Below, one piece after another: positions 9,657-34,179 of a DNA stretch of 64,000 bases. The position numbers and the translations under genes were made by a program. Under the pieces are notes generated by a model. That model did no database searches. It was given only the letters and a program-made list of their open reading frames with translations, and was not told where the DNA came from. The stretch covers positions 1-64,000 of the IMG/VR virus record IMGVR_UViG_2706796489_000001. One strand, given 5' to 3'. This DNA is from a virus (taxonomy: Duplodnaviria > Caudoviricetes). The number at the start of each line of letters is the position of its first letter. Within the stretch, counting starts at the first letter, position 1.

Positions 9657-9699
9657 GTCGGCACTTTCACCGCGTCCCTGAAAAAGCACCAAACTGGTT

Positions 9700-10848
9700 A
9701 TGGCCAAGAGCGTAAAAGTTACCCCCGCTATCGAAGCCCGTGTTCGTGCGAACAACGGAGGCGAAGACGTTGACATGAGCAAGGTCGTCGTCTTCGAGAC
9801 CGTGGCCGCGTCAACCAGCCCGATCAACAAGCGTGGTTCCATCTTCGACAAGGGCGTGATCTCCGCGTCCACCTTGATCGAGATGGCCAACTACCTGAAC
9901 CAGCAGAAGGGCTTCGTGCCGCTGCACACTCTGCACCCGCAAGGTGACGAGTTGCCGCTGGGCCGCTTCTTCTACGCCGAGGTGCTGCCTTCGCCGGACG
10001 GCGACGGGTCGATGGACCTGGTGGCGCAGTTCTACATCTCGGCCACCGAAGAAGACAAGATCGCCAAGATGGAGCAAGGCATCATTGACGAGGTGTCGGT
10101 GACGCTGCGCACGAAGACGATCCTGTGCTCGGAATGCGGCTGGGATTACCTCGGCAAAGACGCCACCATCATGAATCTCTTTGACCAGACGTGCGGCAAC
10201 GACCACACTGTCGGTCATAACGGAGTCCACGTTAACCTCAATGGCATGGAAGCGTGGACGGAAACCTCGCTCGTGTCCAAAGGTGCCTCGTCCAATGCGA
10301 AGATCGCGGGTCGTGCCAAGCAACGACTCTCGGCCGAGCATTACGAGAAACTGGCCGCGAGCGGTATCCATCCCGACGCTACTTTCCTTACCGCAACCAT
10401 CAAAGATCACCCCCGGAGCAATTCGACCATGGACAAAGAAACCCTCGACCGCCTGACCTCGTTGAGCGCCAGCGAAGCCACCCTGAAGGCCCAGGTCGTT
10501 ACCCTGACCGCCAGCGAAACCACGCTCAAGGCCCAAGTCGCCGCGCTGACCGCCGAGCGTGACCAGCTCAAGTCCGGTGAAGCCGTGACCGCCGCTGTCG
10601 CCGCGCACGAAGCCACCAAGACCGAACTGGCCGCTGCCAACACCGCGCACGACGCCACCAAGGCCGAGCTGACCGCCGCCAACACGGCCAAGGCCGAGCT
10701 GGAAACCAAGCTGACCGCCGCCACGGCCCAGGTCGAGGTGCTGAAGGCCAACGTGATCAACAACCCCCGAGCCAATGGTGACAAGACCGGCGTCTCGGAC
10801 CTCTCCGCTTCGGCGGGCAACAGCGCGTTCAAGACCCGTCGCAACTAA
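9700..10848 (+). CDS. prohead protease fused to a coiled-coil scaffold
   Basis: N-terminal protease-like domain (LHTLH, DEVSV, ETSLVSKGA) plus C-terminal Ala-rich heptad repeats (SEATLKAQV/SETTLKAQV; AHEATKTEL/AHDATKAEL). Confidence 0.8.
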   Translation: MAKSVKVTPAIEARVRANNGGEDVDMSKVVVFETVAASTSPINKRGSIFDKGVISASTLIEMANYLNQQKGFVPLHTLHPQGDELPLGRFFYAEVLPSPDGDGSMDLVAQFYISATEEDKIAKMEQGIIDEVSVTLRTKTILCSECGWDYLGKDATIMNLFDQTCGNDHTVGHNGVHVNLNGMEAWTETSLVSKGASSNAKIAGRAKQRLSAEHYEKLAASGIHPDATFLTATIKDHPRSNSTMDKETLDRLTSLSASEATLKAQVVTLTASETTLKAQVAALTAERDQLKSGEAVTAAVAAHEATKTELAAANTAHDATKAELTAANTAKAELETKLTAATAQVEVLKANVINNPRANGDKTGVSDLSASAGNSAFKTRRN

Positions 10849-25377: not shown

Positions 25378-28300
25378 ATGCACATTGCACCTTTGCGTGG
25401 AGCCGGTGGCGGCGGGGGCGGCAGCAGCTCCAAGTACAAGCGCACCGATGACAACCTCTTCTCCCGAGACACCGTTGAACTGGTCCTCGGGTTGAGCGTT
25501 GGTCCCATTCGTGGCCTGACCCGTGGCATGAAGAGCTTCTACGTTGGCGGCACCCCGCTGATGTCGGAAGGCGGCGACATGAACTTTCAATCTTTCAACC
25601 TGGGCGTCAAGCTCGGGTACGAGAGCGATGGTCCGGTCTCCTACAAGCTGGGTGGCGAATCCTCCAACAAGTCCGTTGGCACGAAGATGATGAGCGGTAC
25701 GTGGATCAGTCGGCAGACCGAGCAGACCGTGCGCGGCGTGATCGACCAGCTCCAGGTTCGCATCAACTTCCAACAGCTGTACCGCACCGACGACAAGGGT
25801 GACTACAACCACACCGCGCAGTTCTACATCCAGTACAAGCCGGCGTCTTCCGGCTGGTGGCAGAACTATGGCGGCGAGATGGTCCAGATCACGGGCAAGA
25901 CCACCTCTGGCTACTACGTGGACTTCGTCTTCGACGTGCCGCGCATCAATGATGACTGGCTCATCCGAGTCATGAAGGTGAACCCGGACAGCACGAACAC
26001 CAACGTGTGCGACATGGCCTGGGACAGCTTTCAAGCTATCACCAAGAGCAATCGTCGCTACAACAAGCTGGCACTGGCCCACATCGTCGCGCTGGCCACC
26101 AGCCAGTTCGGCTCCATCCCCGACTTTGCTGGCGTCTACGATGGTCGCCTCATCCAGATCCCGACGAACTACAACCCTGACACCAGGCTCTACGACGAGA
26201 TCACGCCGTGGAACGGCACGTTCAAAACGGGTTGGACGAACTGCCCGCCGTGGATCTTGTATGACCTGATCATGAATCCCGACTACGGCCTGCGGAAGTA
26301 TTACCCGCAGATCACGGTCAACCGCTTCGACTTTTACGACGCGGCCAAGTGGTGCGATACCTTCGTGCCGAACGGCAAGGGTGGCTATCAGCCGCGCTAC
26401 ACGTTCAACATGGCGCTGCTGGAGGCCAAGGATGGTCTGGAGATGCTGCAATGGATCGCGGGCAGCTTCGGTGCTGTGATCTTCGATGATGCAACCGGCC
26501 AGGTCTATCTGAAAGTGGACAAGTGGGAAGAGCCGAAGATGCTCTTCACGCCGGAGAACGTTGAAGGTGGAGACTTCAACTACAGCTTCACCGACATGAC
26601 CACGCGGTACAACGACTACAAGGTGCAGTTCGTCAACCCGGATCTCGACTGGAACCAGGATCAACGTCGCGTCTACGATCCCACCCACATCGCTTCGCAT
26701 GGCAACATCCCGACCGAGATGGTCATGGTGGGATGCACCGACGAGCATGAAGCGCTGCGCCGTGGTTACTACCGCATGATCACGGCCTTGACCGAAACGT
26801 GCTCGGTCACGTTCAACGTTGCTCGCCTGGGCAAGGTGATCGACCCGTACATGGTCATCGCTATCGCTGACCCGACCCCTGGCTGGTCCGTCAGCGGCCG
26901 GATCAAGGCGTACATGAACAGCTACGTCCAGCTGCGAGATCCGATCTACTTCACGACGGTGCAGAACTACACCATGACCTTGCAGACCGTAGATGGCCTG
27001 GTCAAGGTGGTGGTAAATCCTGAGCGCGTGGGGACGGCTTTCCAGGTCAAGGTGGTGTCGGGCTTTGTGCCGGATGGTCTGCCGGATCGCACGGTGTTCT
27101 CTATCGAGGACAACGGCAACTTCGGCGTGGCCAAGCCCTTCCGGGTAATGGACATCGAGAACATCGAAGGCAGCGCTGATCGCTTCACGATCATGGCCAT
27201 CGAGATCAACCGGAACAAGCAGGCCGGCGCGGACAACTGCACGCCGGTTGGCAGCGTCCAATACTCGTTCAAGAACCCGCTTATCCCTCCACCCCCGATG
27301 AACATTCAGGCGGACTCCGGCACCGAGCAAATGATCATCGCCCAGGATGGTTCCATCATGGCGCGGATCTTCGCGTATTGGGACGCCCCGCCCAACGTGC
27401 TAATCGAGCGCTATGAGATCGAGTGGAAAGAGAGCGATCAATCCACCTGGTATTACACGACCAGTCCCAGCGAAAGCGTGTTCCTTGCACCTTGCAAGAG
27501 CGGCGTGGCTTACGACATCGTGGTCTGGGCTGTGAACTCGTTCGGCAATCGCTCGTCGGCGCTGACGCTGTTCAACTATGTCTGCATCGGCAAGACCGCG
27601 CCCCCGTCGAACGTCAAGAACTTCACGATCCGCCGCCGCACGAATGACATCCTGCTGCAATGGGACGCTATCCCCGACCTCGACCGCAAGGGCTACGAGA
27701 TCCGCATTGGCACGACGTGGGAGACCGCGACCGTGCTGGTGACGGACTACTCCGCTACGCAGTTCGCATGGACGACGACTGAAGGCGGAAGCTACTCGTT
27801 CTTGATCAGTGCCATCGACTCGTCGGGTAACTACTCGCTGCTGCCCACGCTGCAAACGATCTACATTCAAGGGCCGAGCGCGGTCACAGGTGTCATCGCC
27901 ATCCAGTCGAACAACCGCATCGAGCTGCGCTGGACGCCGAACCCTGAAGACAACATCTTGGAATACGAGATCCGGGAGGGTGGCGCGTGGGGTACTGCGG
28001 TGTTCCTGGCCAAGGTCAAGTCCACCGGCTACAGCGTCACGGCCGGTTCCGCTGGCACGCGGATGTTCTGGATCAAGGCCATTGCCTCGCCTGGCGTCTA
28101 CTCCGAACGTGCATCGTTCGTGACGACCGACGTAGCCCAGCTGGACGACACCAACATCATCTACACGACGGACGAAGTGGCCAATGGCTTCCTCGGTTCG
28201 CGCTACAACATGGTGGTGGTCGGCGGCGAGCTGCGAATGGACAGCGGCCGGCAGCGTTCCGAGTACATCTTCCCGGTCACGCTACCCACGCGCTTCCGGG

Positions 28301-28968
28301 CGCAGAACACGCTGTTCGTGGGTCTTGACGCCATCGTGGACTACAGCACGACTTGGGCGCAGGCCACCTACCCGTGGGACGACCCCAAGGCGCGCACGCC
28401 GTGGGTCACGCCCGGCGACATCTCATCCATCGGCTACAAGTCCGAGATCTCGCTGCGCCGCGAGATCCCTGCGGATGTGCTGCACTCCTGGCCCCTGAAC
28501 GGCACGCTGGTCTCGGAAGGCTTGTCCGACCGCAACCCCGCCAACATCCTGGAACAGGAGAACATCACCTACGGCACCGGCAAATACGGCCGAGGCCTGT
28601 ACGTGGAAAGCGGCACGCCGACGCCAACCAAGCTGCGCTACACGACCATCATCCCGTCCACCTTCAGCTTCAGCGCCTGGGTTCGCCCGATGGATGTTGA
28701 GGACGACGTGTGGTTCGTGATGGAACGCGGAGCTGACTGGATCGCCGTGGTCTACAACAAGGAACGCGAAGCCGTCATGGTCACTTCGACCGACAGCAAG
28801 CAGATCCTCATTCCTTTCAAGATCAACCCTGGTGAACGTTACCTGGTCACGCTCGTTCAAGGTAGCGGTGATCGCACCTTGTACGTCGGCCGTGAAGACA
28901 ACACCTATGCCAAGGGCATGGTCTCCGCCTTCCCGATTGGCGCTATCACCAGCGTGAGGTACTACTGA
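25378..28968 (+). CDS. central tail fibre/host specificity protein (gpJ-like)
   Basis: VELVLGLSVGPIRG; WTNCPPWILYD; PRYTFN; FN3-like repeats; C-terminal LamG-like region (GKYGRGL, FSFSAWVRP). Confidence 0.9.
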   Translation: MHIAPLRGAGGGGGGSSSKYKRTDDNLFSRDTVELVLGLSVGPIRGLTRGMKSFYVGGTPLMSEGGDMNFQSFNLGVKLGYESDGPVSYKLGGESSNKSVGTKMMSGTWISRQTEQTVRGVIDQLQVRINFQQLYRTDDKGDYNHTAQFYIQYKPASSGWWQNYGGEMVQITGKTTSGYYVDFVFDVPRINDDWLIRVMKVNPDSTNTNVCDMAWDSFQAITKSNRRYNKLALAHIVALATSQFGSIPDFAGVYDGRLIQIPTNYNPDTRLYDEITPWNGTFKTGWTNCPPWILYDLIMNPDYGLRKYYPQITVNRFDFYDAAKWCDTFVPNGKGGYQPRYTFNMALLEAKDGLEMLQWIAGSFGAVIFDDATGQVYLKVDKWEEPKMLFTPENVEGGDFNYSFTDMTTRYNDYKVQFVNPDLDWNQDQRRVYDPTHIASHGNIPTEMVMVGCTDEHEALRRGYYRMITALTETCSVTFNVARLGKVIDPYMVIAIADPTPGWSVSGRIKAYMNSYVQLRDPIYFTTVQNYTMTLQTVDGLVKVVVNPERVGTAFQVKVVSGFVPDGLPDRTVFSIEDNGNFGVAKPFRVMDIENIEGSADRFTIMAIEINRNKQAGADNCTPVGSVQYSFKNPLIPPPPMNIQADSGTEQMIIAQDGSIMARIFAYWDAPPNVLIERYEIEWKESDQSTWYYTTSPSESVFLAPCKSGVAYDIVVWAVNSFGNRSSALTLFNYVCIGKTAPPSNVKNFTIRRRTNDILLQWDAIPDLDRKGYEIRIGTTWETATVLVTDYSATQFAWTTTEGGSYSFLISAIDSSGNYSLLPTLQTIYIQGPSAVTGVIAIQSNNRIELRWTPNPEDNILEYEIREGGAWGTAVFLAKVKSTGYSVTAGSAGTRMFWIKAIASPGVYSERASFVTTDVAQLDDTNIIYTTDEVANGFLGSRYNMVVVGGELRMDSGRQRSEYIFPVTLPTRFRAQNTLFVGLDAIVDYSTTWAQATYPWDDPKARTPWVTPGDISSIGYKSEISLRREIPADVLHSWPLNGTLVSEGLSDRNPANILEQENITYGTGKYGRGLYVESGTPTPTKLRYTTIIPSTFSFSAWVRPMDVEDDVWFVMERGADWIAVVYNKEREAVMVTSTDSKQILIPFKINPGERYLVTLVQGSGDRTLYVGREDNTYAKGMVSAFPIGAITSVRYY

Positions 28969-29441
28969 TGTCACACATCATCTCCGATGCCTTGGTGACT
29001 ACCAAGCTTTTGACCGAGGAACAGTTTCGACAGTCCCTCATCAACGAAGCGCCGGTGGGCTTCGGCCCCTTCCAGCAGTTCGTCCCCGGTGACTACGAGT
29101 ATGAGACTGCGCTGTACCGGATCTCGATGGTGTCGAGTTCCGGCGACCGTGGTGTGATCAACAAGTTGCAGGTTGATGTGGACGTGCCGGACATGATGGA
29201 CCGTGGTCGCGTGACGATCACGCCGGCCATGGCCGCAGCTGGCCCGACCTGGGTGTCTTTCAGCCGCCCGTTCCACATTCCTCCTGAGCCTGTAACCAAC
29301 TTGATGAGCGCGTCGTTCGAATGCGTGGTCCGCGTGTTGCCGGATTCCGTCACTCGGGCAGGCTTCATGGTCTACCTCCAACGGACGGACAACGGGGAAC
29401 GAACGGATGGTGTGCTGACCTGGGCCGCGCACTCCTATTAA
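28968..29441 (+). CDS. tail-tip-associated protein
   Basis: Coupled to the gpJ-like gene; VSFSRPFH..PEP (fibre-type beta motif). Confidence 0.6.
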   Translation: MSHIISDALVTTKLLTEEQFRQSLINEAPVGFGPFQQFVPGDYEYETALYRISMVSSSGDRGVINKLQVDVDVPDMMDRGRVTITPAMAAAGPTWVSFSRPFHIPPEPVTNLMSASFECVVRVLPDSVTRAGFMVYLQRTDNGERTDGVLTWAAHSY

Positions 29442-29501
29442 ACCTGGGCTTCTCCGGTTCTCCCGGATAAAATCTCACCACGGTAAACGGAAGATTCAAC
29501 C

Positions 29502-30953
29502 ATGCAAAACTACACCAACATCCCGTCAAGCCAGCGAGTCTCCGACTCGCTGGCGCTGTTGCTGAACAACGACCTGACGGGGATCTCGCGCAACAGTGGC
29601 ACGGCCTTCCCGACCATCGGTCTGCAAGTCGGGATGCCCTTCGTCCATTTGACCGAGCGCAAGCTGTACCGCCTGGAGAGTCTGTCGCCCGTCACCTGGA
29701 CGCTGGAGCTGGACCTGGCCAAGACCCTGGTCTACTCGGAAACCATTGACACGGTGAACGCGCTGGTGGCCACCAAGGTTTCGCTGTCGGGCGGCGTCAT
29801 GACCGGATTGCTGACCTTGAGCGGCAACCCGACGCAGACCCTGCACGCGGCCACCAAGGGCTACGTGGATACGGTCGGCGCTACCGCTTCAGCGTCCGCC
29901 AATACCCGCGTGCTCAAGACGGGCGACACCATGACCGGCCAGCTCACGCTGCCGGGAGATCCGACCTTGGATCTTCATGCGGCGACCAAACGCTATGCCG
30001 ACTACCTGTTCAACACGGTCAACCAGAACAAGGTGAACAAGGCCGGCGACACGGTGAACGAGATCTACAACACCGGCTGGTATCGCTCGACGGGTAACGT
30101 GGGCTGGTACAACCAGACCTACGGTGGCGGCCTGTACATGGTTGATTCCGTCTACTTGCGCGGCACGGGCGCACAGGGGTTGATCGTCGGCCCTCACCAG
30201 CTACTGAACAACGGTCAGATCTACACCGGACGCTACGGCTACCTTGAAAACTACTTCGCTTCCAAGAGCGCGGAAGATCGCATCACGGCGGCGAGCACGA
30301 CCGAATCGGGCAGCGGCTCCTTCTACAACCCGGGCGGCTATTACCTGACGCGCTCCGGCGCCTACGTCTACCTCGTCAAGCCGCGCCAGAACTGCAACTG
30401 TGACTGCAACTGCAATTGCTCGTGCTTCCCGGCCGGTACGATGGTGCTGATGGCCGATGGGACGCAGAAGCTGATCGAGACCATCCAGGTCGGAGATCAA
30501 GTCATGGGCTGGGATGGCCAGCCTGATGAAGTTGACTTGATGGAATACCCGATCTTGGGCGAGCGCCGCCTGGCTGGCTTTGCTGACGGCTCGTTGAGCT
30601 GGTCGGAAGAGCACCTGGCCTGGACGCGCCGCGATGGCCACGAGTGGTTCGGCACGCTGGGCAAGAACTGGTGGTATGCCGAGGTACTGGCGGATCACGT
30701 CGTCGGCCTGCGCGACAACGCCACGCTGCGGGATCTGGATGAAGACCGCGACGAGTTCGCGCACGTTAGCGGCTGGGTCAAGCGCAAGCTGGTGGCCGAG
30801 AAGGCCGACTACAACACCCAGCTGTACCTGCCGCGCACCAAGCGCACGCACATGATCATCGTCAACGGCTACCTGATGACGGCCGGCACTGACGGCTTCG
30901 CTGTGGACTACACGCAAGTGAACTGGAAAGGACTCCCCCATGTTGCTGCATAA
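29502..30953 (+). CDS. tail fibre with Cys-rich tip and C-terminal Hint domain
   Basis: Fibre repeats (GGVMTGLLTL..P...LHAATKGYVD; GDTMTGQLTL..P...LHAATKRYAD); GWYNQTYGGG motif; NCNCDCNCNCS then Hint CFPAGTMVLMADG, block B SEEH. Confidence 0.88.
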   Translation: MQNYTNIPSSQRVSDSLALLLNNDLTGISRNSGTAFPTIGLQVGMPFVHLTERKLYRLESLSPVTWTLELDLAKTLVYSETIDTVNALVATKVSLSGGVMTGLLTLSGNPTQTLHAATKGYVDTVGATASASANTRVLKTGDTMTGQLTLPGDPTLDLHAATKRYADYLFNTVNQNKVNKAGDTVNEIYNTGWYRSTGNVGWYNQTYGGGLYMVDSVYLRGTGAQGLIVGPHQLLNNGQIYTGRYGYLENYFASKSAEDRITAASTTESGSGSFYNPGGYYLTRSGAYVYLVKPRQNCNCDCNCNCSCFPAGTMVLMADGTQKLIETIQVGDQVMGWDGQPDEVDLMEYPILGERRLAGFADGSLSWSEEHLAWTRRDGHEWFGTLGKNWWYAEVLADHVVGLRDNATLRDLDEDRDEFAHVSGWVKRKLVAEKADYNTQLYLPRTKRTHMIIVNGYLMTAGTDGFAVDYTQVNWKGLPHVAA

Positions 30954-31662
30954 ATCCTTCGTCTCCCCCGAGCTGGTCTTCTCGGACGACAAAGAAGTGG
31001 CCAAGGCCAATGAATGGACCTTGCGTGTTCAACCCACGCCTACCGGGTTCATCATCCAGTCTGCGGCCTATCAGCTGTATTGGCAGTTCGACCACACGAA
31101 GCTCCAGCACGGCGACGACATCCTGCACCTGGTCAAGGCCCGCAGCGGTGAGGTCAAGATGATCTGGCACTCCGAGACCACGCAGTCCAAGGACGGCATG
31201 GCGGCGGCGCTCCAGCGCAACAACATCGACGTGTTCATGCCGCTGGTGGTCATCGCCATTGCCAAGGACACGTCCGACTTCGTTGCGGTGTTCCAGGCCA
31301 ACTCGACCCAGACCCTGGGCGACTTCAACGTGCTGCCCGAGAACCTGGCCACGGCGCGCTCGGACGAGATCTTCCTGGCCGTCGCGCCGCAGATGACGGA
31401 CATGATCAACCGTTATGGCGAGAAGATGCGCTTGCTCAAGGGCATCCGCACCAACGACGCCATCGCGGCGCTGGAGGCCCAGGTGGATCTGCTGACCTCG
31501 TGGGTGTCGGCGCTGATCCCCGAGGAATTCCGGGACCAGCTGATCGAGGCCGGAGTTCTAAGGAACAAAGATACCAAAGTGGTTTTTGATGATATGCTTG
31601 CGTTCAAGCAGTCGATGCGCTCCCGCGTTGGCACTTATCAAAAGATCGTCAAGAAAACATGA
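30940..31662 (+). CDS. hypothetical protein coupled to the fibre and radical SAM genes (240 aa)
   Basis: Overlaps the fibre stop and the radical SAM start; beta-rich N-terminal half, helical C-terminal half. Confidence 0.8.
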   Translation: MLLHKSFVSPELVFSDDKEVAKANEWTLRVQPTPTGFIIQSAAYQLYWQFDHTKLQHGDDILHLVKARSGEVKMIWHSETTQSKDGMAAALQRNNIDVFMPLVVIAIAKDTSDFVAVFQANSTQTLGDFNVLPENLATARSDEIFLAVAPQMTDMINRYGEKMRLLKGIRTNDAIAALEAQVDLLTSWVSALIPEEFRDQLIEAGVLRNKDTKVVFDDMLAFKQSMRSRVGTYQKIVKKT

Positions 31663-33023
31663 CCACCTTTGTTCTCAAGACGGTCGATGCCGATGGCATC
31701 GGCCGTGATTTTTTGTACAACAACATGGCCAGCGTGTTGCGTGAGATCAGCACCAACACGAAGATCATGCCGCGTGTCACCGAAGAGAAGGTGACGCCGA
31801 CCCGCCCGGTCATGGTGACGTGGAAGAAGAGCCGCAAGATCAGCGTGCTCAAGATTCAGCTGGGTCTGTCCTGCAACTACTCCTGCGAATACTGTCTCCA
31901 GCGCTTCGTGCCATTCGAGCAAGACACGAGCGCCCGCGATGTCGAGGCCTTCATGGCCAGCCTGGAGCGCAACGTCACGCTGGCGCCTAACGCCCGCATC
32001 CAGTTCTGGGGCGGCGAGCCGCTGGTCTACTGGAAGACCATGTTCCCCTTGGCGCGAGCACTGCGCGCCAAGTACCCCGAGGCACAGTTCTCGGTCATCA
32101 CCAATGGTTCATTGTTGGATTTCGAGAAGGCCTTGTTCCTGCTGGAGCTGGGCTTTGACGTGGCCATCTCGCACGACGGCCCCGGCCAGTCGATCCGAGG
32201 TGCTGACCCGTTCGAAGATCCGCTCACGCGCCAGGCCATTCTCATGCTCTACCAGCGCCTGCAACCGCTGGGCAAGATGTCCTTCAACGCGATGATCCAC
32301 AAGAACAACCAGAGCCGCGCTGCGGTTCAAGAGTTCTTCCAGAAGCTGACCAACGATCCTGACGTGCCGATTGGTGAAGGCGGCTTCATCGACGCCTACG
32401 ATGAAGGCGGCATGATGCACACGACCATGACCGCGCAAGAGCACGTCGAGTTCCGCCGGCAGGCGTTCGATGAGATCTCCAATGGTCGAGCCTTGAACTT
32501 CGTGTCGGTCGGCCAGAAGATCATGGACTTCTTCGAAACGCTGGACACTGGCCGCAGCGGCTACCACGTCTGGCAGAAGTGCGGCATGGATAAGGAAGAC
32601 CGCATCGCGGTCACGCTCAAGGGCGACGTGCTGACGTGCCAGAACGTCTCAACCACGGCGGTCGCGGCGAACGGTGCCTCGCACCATGTCGGCAACATCG
32701 AGCGGATGGAAGAGGTCAAGATCGAAACCAGCAGCCACTGGCTCGGCCGCGAGAACTGCCGGTCATGCCCGGTGCTTCAGCTGTGCAAAGGCTCCTGCAT
32801 GTACCTGCAAGGCGACCTGTGGGATGCGAGCTGCGCGGCCTCGTACAGCGACAACGTGGTCTTGCTGGCCGTGGCCGTGAAAGAGCTGACGGGATGCACG
32901 CTCAAGACCATCGAGCCGCTGGGCGACAAGCTCCCTGACTACCGGCGCAACGTGTTCGATGACGCCCCCAAGAACGAAACGCACCTTCGGAAAATCATTC
33001 CGATCACCCTGGAGAAGAAGTGA
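31659..33023 (+). CDS. radical SAM enzyme with a SPASM domain
   Basis: CNYSCEYC (CX3CX2C), FWGGEP, VITNG, ISHDG; seven-Cys SPASM: C-X13-G-X4-C...CRSC-X5-C-X3-C...C. Confidence 0.95.
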   Translation: MTTFVLKTVDADGIGRDFLYNNMASVLREISTNTKIMPRVTEEKVTPTRPVMVTWKKSRKISVLKIQLGLSCNYSCEYCLQRFVPFEQDTSARDVEAFMASLERNVTLAPNARIQFWGGEPLVYWKTMFPLARALRAKYPEAQFSVITNGSLLDFEKALFLLELGFDVAISHDGPGQSIRGADPFEDPLTRQAILMLYQRLQPLGKMSFNAMIHKNNQSRAAVQEFFQKLTNDPDVPIGEGGFIDAYDEGGMMHTTMTAQEHVEFRRQAFDEISNGRALNFVSVGQKIMDFFETLDTGRSGYHVWQKCGMDKEDRIAVTLKGDVLTCQNVSTTAVAANGASHHVGNIERMEEVKIETSSHWLGRENCRSCPVLQLCKGSCMYLQGDLWDASCAASYSDNVVLLAVAVKELTGCTLKTIEPLGDKLPDYRRNVFDDAPKNETHLRKIIPITLEKK

Positions 33024-33424
33024 TGAACGACCCTCAAGCTCAAGCTCAACCCCGCGAACCCGGCGACTACATGATCCAGGCGCTGCAACACCAGCGCAAC
33101 AACGCCATGGACTTGCTGGCGCAGACCCAGATGTCCCTGGGCATGGCTCAACAAGGCCTGGAGCAAGCCATCGCGCAGAACAAGGCGCTCAACGAGATGA
33201 ACGAGGCCATGATCAAGGCCAACGCCGAGCTGGAAGGTGAGCTGGCGCGCCTGCGGTCGGAGAACCAGATCCTGGCCACCAAGCTCGACTCGCACGCGCA
33301 CTGCGCGCAAGGGGAGGGGGTCTTGACCACGTTGCTCACGGCCGACAATCCGCCCGCGCATACCCCGCCTCCCCCTCAAGCCCAGGCGGGCGAGCCGGCC
33401 ACGGCGAGGGGGTCGGAAAGTTGA
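33020..33424 (+). CDS. hypothetical coiled-coil protein
   Basis: Start overlaps the radical SAM stop; Gln/Ala/Glu heptads and a Pro-rich tail. Confidence 0.75.
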   Translation: MMNDPQAQAQPREPGDYMIQALQHQRNNAMDLLAQTQMSLGMAQQGLEQAIAQNKALNEMNEAMIKANAELEGELARLRSENQILATKLDSHAHCAQGEGVLTTLLTADNPPAHTPPPPQAQAGEPATARGSES

Positions 33425-33545
33425 CGCCCCACCAGTGGTCGTGGAAGAGGCGCTGGCGCGTTTTCTGAACGCCGTTGGGGACCAGATAGCAGCACTGGCC
33501 AGAAAGCTCCCCAGAGGCCGGAATCGCAGGCCATAGCCCTATGTG

Positions 33546-33574
33546 AAAGCGCCCTTGACGGGCGCTTTTTCTTT
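33546..33574 (+). terminator. rho-independent terminator
   Basis: AAAGCGCCC-TTGAC-GGGCGCTTT-TTCTTT. Confidence 0.75.
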
Positions 33575-33639
33575 CCAGAAAACCTTTGGGTAGATGCAAC
33601 CATCCGGTTAGAATCATCCCACCTTCACCGGAGTTCACC

Positions 33640-34179
33640 GTGATCACCATTTCCCCCCAACAGCTCAAGCGGATAATGCCGAACGCCAGCCTGGCTAACA
33701 CGGAGCTGTACGCGCCTCTGCTGACCTCGCACATGCTCAAGTGGCACATCGACACTTACGAGCAAGTCACTGCCTTCATCGCCAACGTTGGCCATGAAAG
33801 CGGTGAGTTGAAATGGGTCGAAGAGATTGCAAGTGGTGCCGCTTATGAAGGTCGCCGCGATCTCGGCAACACCGAACCTGGCGATGGCAAGCGGTACAAA
33901 GGCCGGGGTCTCATCCAGTTGACGGGCCGGCTCAACTACGTGTTGATCGGCTTCATGCTGGAGCAAGACTTCATCAACAACCCTGAAAAACTCAAGGAGC
34001 CGAAATTCGCATCCGAAAGCGCTTGCGCCTTCTGGTGGAACAACTATCTGGATCGCAAAGCAACGAGCGAGACTCAGTTCCGCCAAGTCGTCAAGATCAT
34101 CAACGGCGGATATAACGGGATGGACGACCGTAGCAAGTTGTACGCCCGCGCCCGTGACGTTCTCGCGGAGCAAAAATAA
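33640..34179 (+). CDS. endolysin, glycoside hydrolase family 19
   Basis: FIANVGHESGEL..VEE; YEGRRDLGNT.PGDG.RYKGRGLIQLTGR.NY; IINGGYNG..DR. Start placed at GTG 33640 after GGAG. Confidence 0.93.
   Translation: MITISPQQLKRIMPNASLANTELYAPLLTSHMLKWHIDTYEQVTAFIANVGHESGELKWVEEIASGAAYEGRRDLGNTEPGDGKRYKGRGLIQLTGRLNYVLIGFMLEQDFINNPEKLKEPKFASESACAFWWNNYLDRKATSETQFRQVVKIINGGYNGMDDRSKLYARARDVLAEQK

Follow-up and report, generated by a model that had tools for sequence, protein, structure and literature searches.

Radical S-adenosylmethionine (SAM) enzymes with a SPASM domain are known to modify cysteine residues in several settings. In streptococci, the SPASM enzyme NxxcB of the NxxcB/NxxcA pair, one of the RaS-RiPP systems (RiPP, a peptide made by the ribosome and modified after translation), forms a Cys-Asn beta-thioether within an NxxC register and accepts Asn, Ala, Gln or Asp as the acceptor residue (PMC9389541). 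The SPASM enzymes PapB, which matures PapA to freyrasin, and CteB, which acts on SCIFF peptides, act on Cys-rich repeats, in which they connect Cys with Asp/Glu or other residues, and the acceptor that PapB joins to Cys can be an adjacent one or the residue at the C-terminus (PMC12373016). The Cys residues modified by QhpD, acting on QhpC, and by the anaerobic sulfatase maturase anSME belong to a folded protein or subunit rather than to a peptide that is released. The present report concerns a module of a tailed phage (Caudoviricetes), located at 29502-33424 of a window of 64,000 nt, which is the whole stretch of DNA that was analyzed (positions 1 to 64,000 of the IMG/VR record IMGVR_UViG_2706796489_000001; all coordinates are window positions). 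In this module a tail-fibre gene ending in an alternating repeat of Cys and Asn/Asp, hereafter the tail, is accompanied by the gene of a radical SAM/SPASM enzyme. Judged from sequence, tail and enzyme travel together in hundreds of phages, and this pairing suggests that the host-binding tip of the fibre is modified by an enzyme in a way not yet described. No description of a phage example of such a tail-enzyme system was found in the literature searched, in line with an earlier note on this DNA, written by a model from the sequence alone, which knew of no characterized case.

The fibre gene (29502-30953, + strand) encodes a side-tail-fibre-like protein of 483 amino acids, of which residues 1-307 (29502..30422) are taken as the mature fibre part. 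Residues 77-176 match tail-fibre PHROGs, including phrog_16641 at 4.8e-9, and residues 178-251 match the Shufflon_N constant region of PilV. Upstream lies a gpJ-like central tail fibre gene (25378-28968; phrog_31, E 5e-177), separated from the fibre gene by one ORF (open reading frame) of 157 amino acids, a position that also identifies the protein as a tail fibre. No Cys occurs in the protein before the tail, which reads N-C-N-C-D-C-N-C-N-C-S (N297-S307; 30390..30422) and runs directly into C308-FPAGT, the beginning of a C-terminal Hint domain (residues 308-483; 30423..30953), so that the fusion of such a fibre end to a Hint domain is present as the earlier note had described it. Elsewhere in the window the only ORF with a CxCxC motif is a frame of 63 amino acids on the minus strand. 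In the AlphaFold2 (AF2) monomer model the tail has a low predicted local distance difference test score (pLDDT), as in a flexible linker. Many of the proteins that carry the tail in related loci match collagen-like tail-fibre families, with E-values down to 1e-105, and in the Ralstonia phage RSP15, a myophage, an annotated 'side tail fiber' ends in N-C-Q-C-G-N and is followed by two genes and then by the enzyme gene. By these matches the carriers are tail-fibre proteins.

The enzyme (454 amino acids; 31659..33023, + strand) belongs to the radical SAM superfamily (PF04055, 37.7 bits at a cutoff of 29.5) and has a SPASM domain (TIGR04085, 34.5 bits at a cutoff of 27). Its CX3CX2C motif (residues 72-79; 31872-31895) consists of C72, C76 and C79, and its SPASM region (residues 308-392; 32580-32834) follows the pattern CX9-15GX4C ... 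CX2CX5CX3C ... C with C308-x13-G322-x4-C327, C367-x2-C370-x5-C376-x3-C380 and C392. All of these cysteines are invariant among 26 homologues, so that the intact CX3CX2C and the full set of seven SPASM cysteines read from the sequence before are confirmed. Over residues 23-421 the protein matches phrog_1802, a group of phage radical SAM proteins, with an E-value of 2.1e-74. The nearest NCBIfam families are the geopeptide, PapB, nif11-type, anSME, CcpM, QhpD and SCIFF maturases, and the score lies far below the cutoff in each case: 55.7 bits as against 340 for PapB-family ranthipeptide maturases (NF047865), 51.2 as against 349.45 for anSME (TIGR03942), 47.6 as against 500 for CcpM (TIGR04068), 46.2 as against 453 for QhpD and 43.9 as against 425 for SCIFF maturases (TIGR03974). 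The closest solved structures are 8vpo, anSME (4k37), CteB (5wgg) and BtrN. As the nearest named families all fall below their cutoffs, the enzyme is best described as one that probably works like a Cys-directed SPASM maturase and lies outside every named family tested. It thus shares with PapB and the SCIFF maturases, which are among its best NCBIfam and PDB matches, the type of enzyme and the Cys-rich repeat, but differs from them in its low scores and in that its proposed substrate is a structural protein of the virion. The NxxcB system, compared here by its published description, differs in that NxxcA is a small peptide under quorum control in Gram-positive bacteria, whereas in the phage the motif is repeated at the extreme C-terminus of a tail-fibre protein. 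QhpD and anSME likewise act in another biological setting.

The association between tail and enzyme was examined in both directions. A search with an enzyme profile returned more than 595 stretches in IMG/VR and 201 stretches in species-representative genomes, the latter mostly from Burkholderiales (e.g., Limnohabitans, Burkholderia, Polynucleobacter, and Rhodoferax). Linkage was counted in 85 viral loci and in 53 bacterial or metagenome-assembled loci with at least 3 kb of upstream sequence. An upstream ORF on the same strand (gap of 0.7-6 kb) that ends in (xC)n was present in 66 of the 85 viral loci, and for most of the remainder hardly any sequence is available upstream; in the bacterial and metagenomic set an upstream ORF on the same strand ending in (N/D/A-C)n was found in 48 of 53 loci. 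Starting from the tail, IMG/VR was scanned for a DNA pattern encoding NCNCNCxC, and 80 of the at least 120 matching stretches were taken as loci. Among the matches listed, an enzyme of the family was present in the locus for all 34 in-frame, C-terminal tails with at least 3 kb of downstream sequence, compared to one of 24 loci in which the pattern was out of frame, this single match being located at a contig edge. The linkage persists across siphophage, myophage (RSP15) and prophage contexts and over enzyme identities of 40-87%. The co-occurrence of Cys-repeat fibres with this clade of radical SAM enzymes, which the earlier note had proposed as a check, is therefore found both ways. Within six-frame translations of related loci, CxCxC occurs anywhere in only 102 of 5294 ORFs; in 65 of these it lies no more than six residues from the C-terminus, and almost all of these 65 are fibre genes. 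As the motif is this rare and, where C-terminal, nearly confined to carriers, the tail is not a chance occurrence.

A comparison of 87 distinct tails yields the consensus N-C-N-C-[NDA]-C-[NAD]-C, with three to nine cysteines per tail. The residues between the cysteines are Asn (187), Ala (45), Asp (42) and Gln (5), and the Asn beside Cys is conserved as strongly as Cys itself. While uncapped tails end in Cys in 45 of 62 cases, those capped by a Hint domain finish with C-[S/T] immediately ahead of the Hint Cys. Three to eight residues before the tail, a short strand of the form G-x-x-hydrophobic-x-hydrophobic is conserved. The carriers otherwise vary widely in body and size (92-686 amino acids), and it is mainly their last approximately 25 residues that are common to them. 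Several carriers may be found with a single enzyme, as there are three in locus L004 and two in the contig P0144. The NCNC sequence includes the NxxC register, and the set of residues between the cysteines (N, A, D, Q) is the acceptor set reported for NxxcB. The strong conservation of Asn next to Cys fits an acceptor role.

We propose that the locus encodes a maturation module for the tip of a phage fibre, a reading to which a probability of roughly 0.55 is assigned. The side tail fibre would be made with its flexible Asn/Asp-Cys tail under a Hint cap, and the dedicated radical SAM/SPASM enzyme would modify this tail in the cytoplasm. The likeliest product would be a thioether that joins a Cys sulfur to a carbon in an Asn, Asp or Ala neighbour, and such links could either stay within one chain or connect the three fibre chains with each other. 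Through an N-S acyl shift at Cys308 the Hint cap would then cut itself off, so that the mature fibre would end in its tail. The earlier note had already suggested that the SPASM enzyme acts on the Cys-Asn/Asp end of the fibre; the two-way co-occurrence and the tail-fibre nature of the carriers support this, and it is on these grounds that we infer it here. In a bolder and unlikely version of this scheme, the three fibre chains would be welded together by the thioethers, and the Cys308 thioester of the Hint lineage would be used to cyclize or ligate the fibre C-terminus instead of being hydrolysed. A covalent lock of this kind could form in the reducing cytoplasm, where disulfides cannot, and the target of the ligation could be, for example, a thiol nearby or a partner protein, in the manner of BIL (bacterial intein-like) domains in BUBL conjugation.

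Several observations weigh against a maturation of the fibre tip by thioether formation. The scores of the enzyme for the named maturase families are all far below the cutoffs, and no match to a RiPP recognition element (RRE) or PqqD domain was obtained in Pfam or NCBIfam searches of the window proteins. About 10% of the well-flanked enzyme loci lack a tail by the criterion used (L035, L059, L103, L124, L126, L131, and L142). Furthermore, the counts do not represent independent events, since related phages contribute many of the loci, and the alternating Cys pattern could also be a metal-binding motif. Alternatively, the enzyme may act on the tail but by another chemistry, such as formation of formylglycine (as by anSME), dehydroalanine, a thioaldehyde or C-C links, or an oxidative decarboxylation of the C-terminus as by MftC. 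The alignment to the anSME model extends over its full length (residues 67-381) with a score similar to those of the thioether maturases, and the position of the tail at the extreme C-terminus, often with Cys as the last residue, also speaks for this alternative. Yet the sulfatase motif C/S-x-P/A-x-R was found in none of the 87 tails, and the equal conservation of Asn and Cys is what would be expected of an acceptor, which makes another chemistry somewhat unlikely.

The metal-binding alternative, according to which the tail binds a metal or cluster as a structural motif of a trimeric tip and the substrate of the enzyme is to be sought elsewhere (the partner protein or a host molecule), has an analogue in the His-x-His iron sites of T4 gp37. 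Alternating cysteines in a strand would face one side, three chains would bring together 15 thiols, and the tail is unstructured in the monomer model. This alternative, however, leaves the two-way linkage with one enzyme family unexplained, and the partner proteins can be exchanged between the two unrelated families described below (c0 and c2) with the tail staying constant, so that it appears rather improbable. A released, RiPP-like peptide, with the carrier body as leader and a secreted effector outside the virion as product, must also be considered, as some carriers have only 92-109 amino acids and stand in tandem as paralogues whose N-terminal parts are similar. Classical RiPPs are defined by a short precursor, a leader bound by a PqqD-like RRE domain and the release of a core peptide; the carriers observed here are fibre proteins of 92-686 amino acids with the conserved strand ahead of the tail. 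Here and in many other loci, the carrier is a tail-fibre protein of 300-690 amino acids encoded in the tail module just after gpJ; the module encodes neither a protease nor an exporter, and cleavage by the Hint domain would keep the tail on the fibre. A released product is therefore very doubtful. That enzyme and tail are functionally unconnected, the enzyme being a passenger gene of tail modules that serves, for example, DNA hypermodification or another metabolic purpose, would have a precedent in the phage radical SAM enzymes for thymidine hypermodification (PMC8989533). It can hardly be reconciled with a SPASM-type enzyme carrying seven auxiliary-cluster cysteines, nor with a linkage that is kept in such different phage types and over such a range of enzyme identities.

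If the tail is modified as proposed, enzymatic chemistry of the RiPP type would be part of the building of a virus particle, and it would take place at the C-terminal end of the fibre, where, to judge from other phage fibres, contact with the host is expected. This would be a new class of post-translational modification of virions, with hundreds of examples among the phages of Burkholderiales and of other bacteria, and a new reaction or substrate class for radical SAM enzymology. Engineered or heterologously produced phages, fibres and tailocins would need the enzyme, and the short, portable N-C repeat could be usable as a crosslinking tag.

The Hint domain of the fibre is matched by Pfam Hom_end_hint (PF05203) with 47.5 bits at a cutoff of 32.1, but this match covers only its first 37 positions. 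An AF2 model of the C-terminal part of the fibre, based on 44 homologues, has a pLDDT above 90 from residue 308 to approximately 470, and its best Foldseek match is BIL2 of Tetrahymena BUBL (6y75; E 3.9e-8, TM-score 0.77 by target), with further matches to the Prp8 and gp41-1 inteins, the BIL domain 2lwy of Clostridium thermocellum and the Hedgehog autoprocessing domain 1at0. A Hint domain requires the fold, an N-terminal Cys1 and a block B of the type TxxH, and for splicing also a terminal Asn and a downstream nucleophile. Cys1 (C308) and the block-B His (H371, in S-E-E-H) are invariant in the 44 homologues, which, together with the fold, places the domain among the cleavage-only Hint domains of the BIL and Hedgehog (Hog) type and bears out the Hint assignment of the earlier note as a complete domain. 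The domain contains a conserved V-N-G-Y, which is followed by a conserved C-terminal extension of approximately 25 residues, and a C-extein nucleophile is absent. As there is no nucleophile downstream, the domain is predicted to cleave, and splicing is not expected. This cleavage would place the tail at a free C-terminus, as in the uncapped relatives. BIL and Hog domains resemble the phage domain in fold, Cys1, block-B His, restriction to cleavage and location at the end of a variable surface protein; the phage domain differs from them in that it caps a Cys-repeat fibre tail tied to a radical SAM enzyme and in its C-terminal extension. The self-cleaving intramolecular chaperone domains of the peptidase S74 type at the C-termini of phage fibres and tailspikes are also removable C-terminal modules, although fold and mechanism are unrelated.

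Homologous caps end 63 proteins, 26 of them after a Cys repeat and 37 after other sequence, which rules out that the cap is specific to Cys tails. In the three cases of a capped carrier with a Cys tail that were looked at, the carrier gene follows gpJ and precedes the genes of a partner and of the enzyme, one with a partner of family c0 and one with a partner of family c2. In the enzyme tree, capped loci account for 12 of 103 rows, namely one clade of 10 that includes the window (approximate likelihood ratio test support 97) and two long branches. Since the cap is found without Cys repeats and in only this minority of the tree, it appears to be a portable, minority addition outside the core of the module. 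The capped form may be regarded as a natural experiment on the need for a free C-terminus.

Some further observations concern the cap in other contexts. In L088 (5303-8044) it ends a protein of 347 amino acids encoded just after a PilV-like adhesin with Shufflon_N, in a type IV pilus cluster without a radical SAM gene. As the window fibre, too, has a Shufflon_N-like segment, modules appear to be shared between the fibres of phages and the adhesins of pilus tips. Two jumbo-phage-like contigs, L086 (9490-14778) and L087 (9430-14685), encode Hint-capped, fibre-like proteins without Cys repeats, in which ...YVPPT precedes the Hint Cys; the capped genes are followed by a gene of 67-68 codons and by two or three different radical SAM genes, which looks like a second, distinct radical SAM cassette tied to a Hint-capped protein. 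In the Hint-capped locus L089, an aspartate-decarboxylase-like gene (PF02261; 125 amino acids; 9662-10039) lies between the partner and radical SAM genes. Many of the Hint-capped proteins P0139-P0175 that lack a Cys repeat still have a Cys at position -2 (e.g., G-C-S or S-C-T before the Hint Cys). C-x-C across the cleavage site is therefore a common trait of the Hint cassette and may be relevant to its chemistry.

Between fibre and enzyme, the window encodes a protein of 240 amino acids (30940..31662, + strand) for which no match was found in Pfam, PHROG or NCBIfam. Three main families occupy the interval between carrier and enzyme: c0 (approximately 285 amino acids; 45 loci), c1 (approximately 203 amino acids; 39 loci) and c2 (approximately 234 amino acids; 17 loci), and the window protein is a member of c2. 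This family is small, as only 36 representatives of it were found in 1.84 billion proteins. Comparisons by hhalign yielded no relation among c2, c0, c1 and c6, and c0 and c2 never occur together in one locus. The protein without family match that the earlier note had included in the system is thus present, but it is one of two alternating families (c2 and the 285-residue c0). A specific association of c2 with Hint-capped carriers was rejected, as c2 also accompanies uncapped tails and the Hint-capped L089 has c0. The AF2 model of the 240-residue protein (pLDDT 94.5) comprises an N-terminal beta domain and a C-terminal helical domain. No clear fold match was obtained by Foldseek against PDB, by VIA wide against PDB, or against BFVD and the Atlas; the best one is SPP1 gp22 (Z 4.9, residues 1-121), the others are uncharacterized phage proteins, and Atlas feature matches to beta-trefoil families stay below 0.9 and serve as a lead only. 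The gene corresponds in position to tfa of lambda, and the two carriers of the P0144 contig each have a separate protein of approximately 230 amino acids encoded behind them. Both points suggest that the protein probably serves a particular fibre as an assembly or tip partner, rather than the enzyme as a catalytic subunit.

Family c1 has a marginal match to 2-oxoglutarate (2OG)-Fe(II) oxygenases (PF13759). Such 2OG-Fe(II)-oxygenase-like genes are found in L004 (3973-4563, 6309-6947, and 8280-9256), and in many relatives one to several such genes lie beside or between carrier and enzyme; the window does not contain any. This suggests an extra modification in those phages, for example, the hydroxylation of Asn or Asp.

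The earlier note had presented the locus as a system of four overlapping genes with its own promoter-like site and a terminator. The four ORFs on the + strand are indeed present, with overlaps of 14, 4 and 4 nt between neighbours, but they do not form a fixed four-gene system, given the alternation of partner families, the portability of the Hint domain and the poor conservation of the fourth ORF. The latter (33020..33424, + strand; 134 amino acids), which spans the stop codon of the enzyme gene, is coiled-coil-like only as judged by eye, and tblastn matches were restricted to L001 and L003, the two closest relatives, which rules it out as a core member. The promoter-like site was not reproduced, as a consensus scan of 28800-33800 listed none. 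For the terminator, direct reading of the sequence at about 33546..33576 (+ strand), between the module and the endolysin gene (33586-34179) of the downstream lysis cassette, gives a terminator-like GC hairpin and T-run, although it was missing from the output of the scan. Among annotated genomes, that of the cultured Achromobacter phage 2-1 (82.7 kb) is the closest, with an identical gene layout, and the window genome is of the siphophage type. Finally, a hairpin with a 12-bp stem and a U-run (31680..31716, + strand; -21.9 kcal/mol, z -3.87) lies 20 nt within the radical SAM gene, and its stem is preserved through paired base changes in relatives whose enzymes are only 56% identical. This hairpin may act as an intragenic attenuator which holds the enzyme below the level of the fibre.

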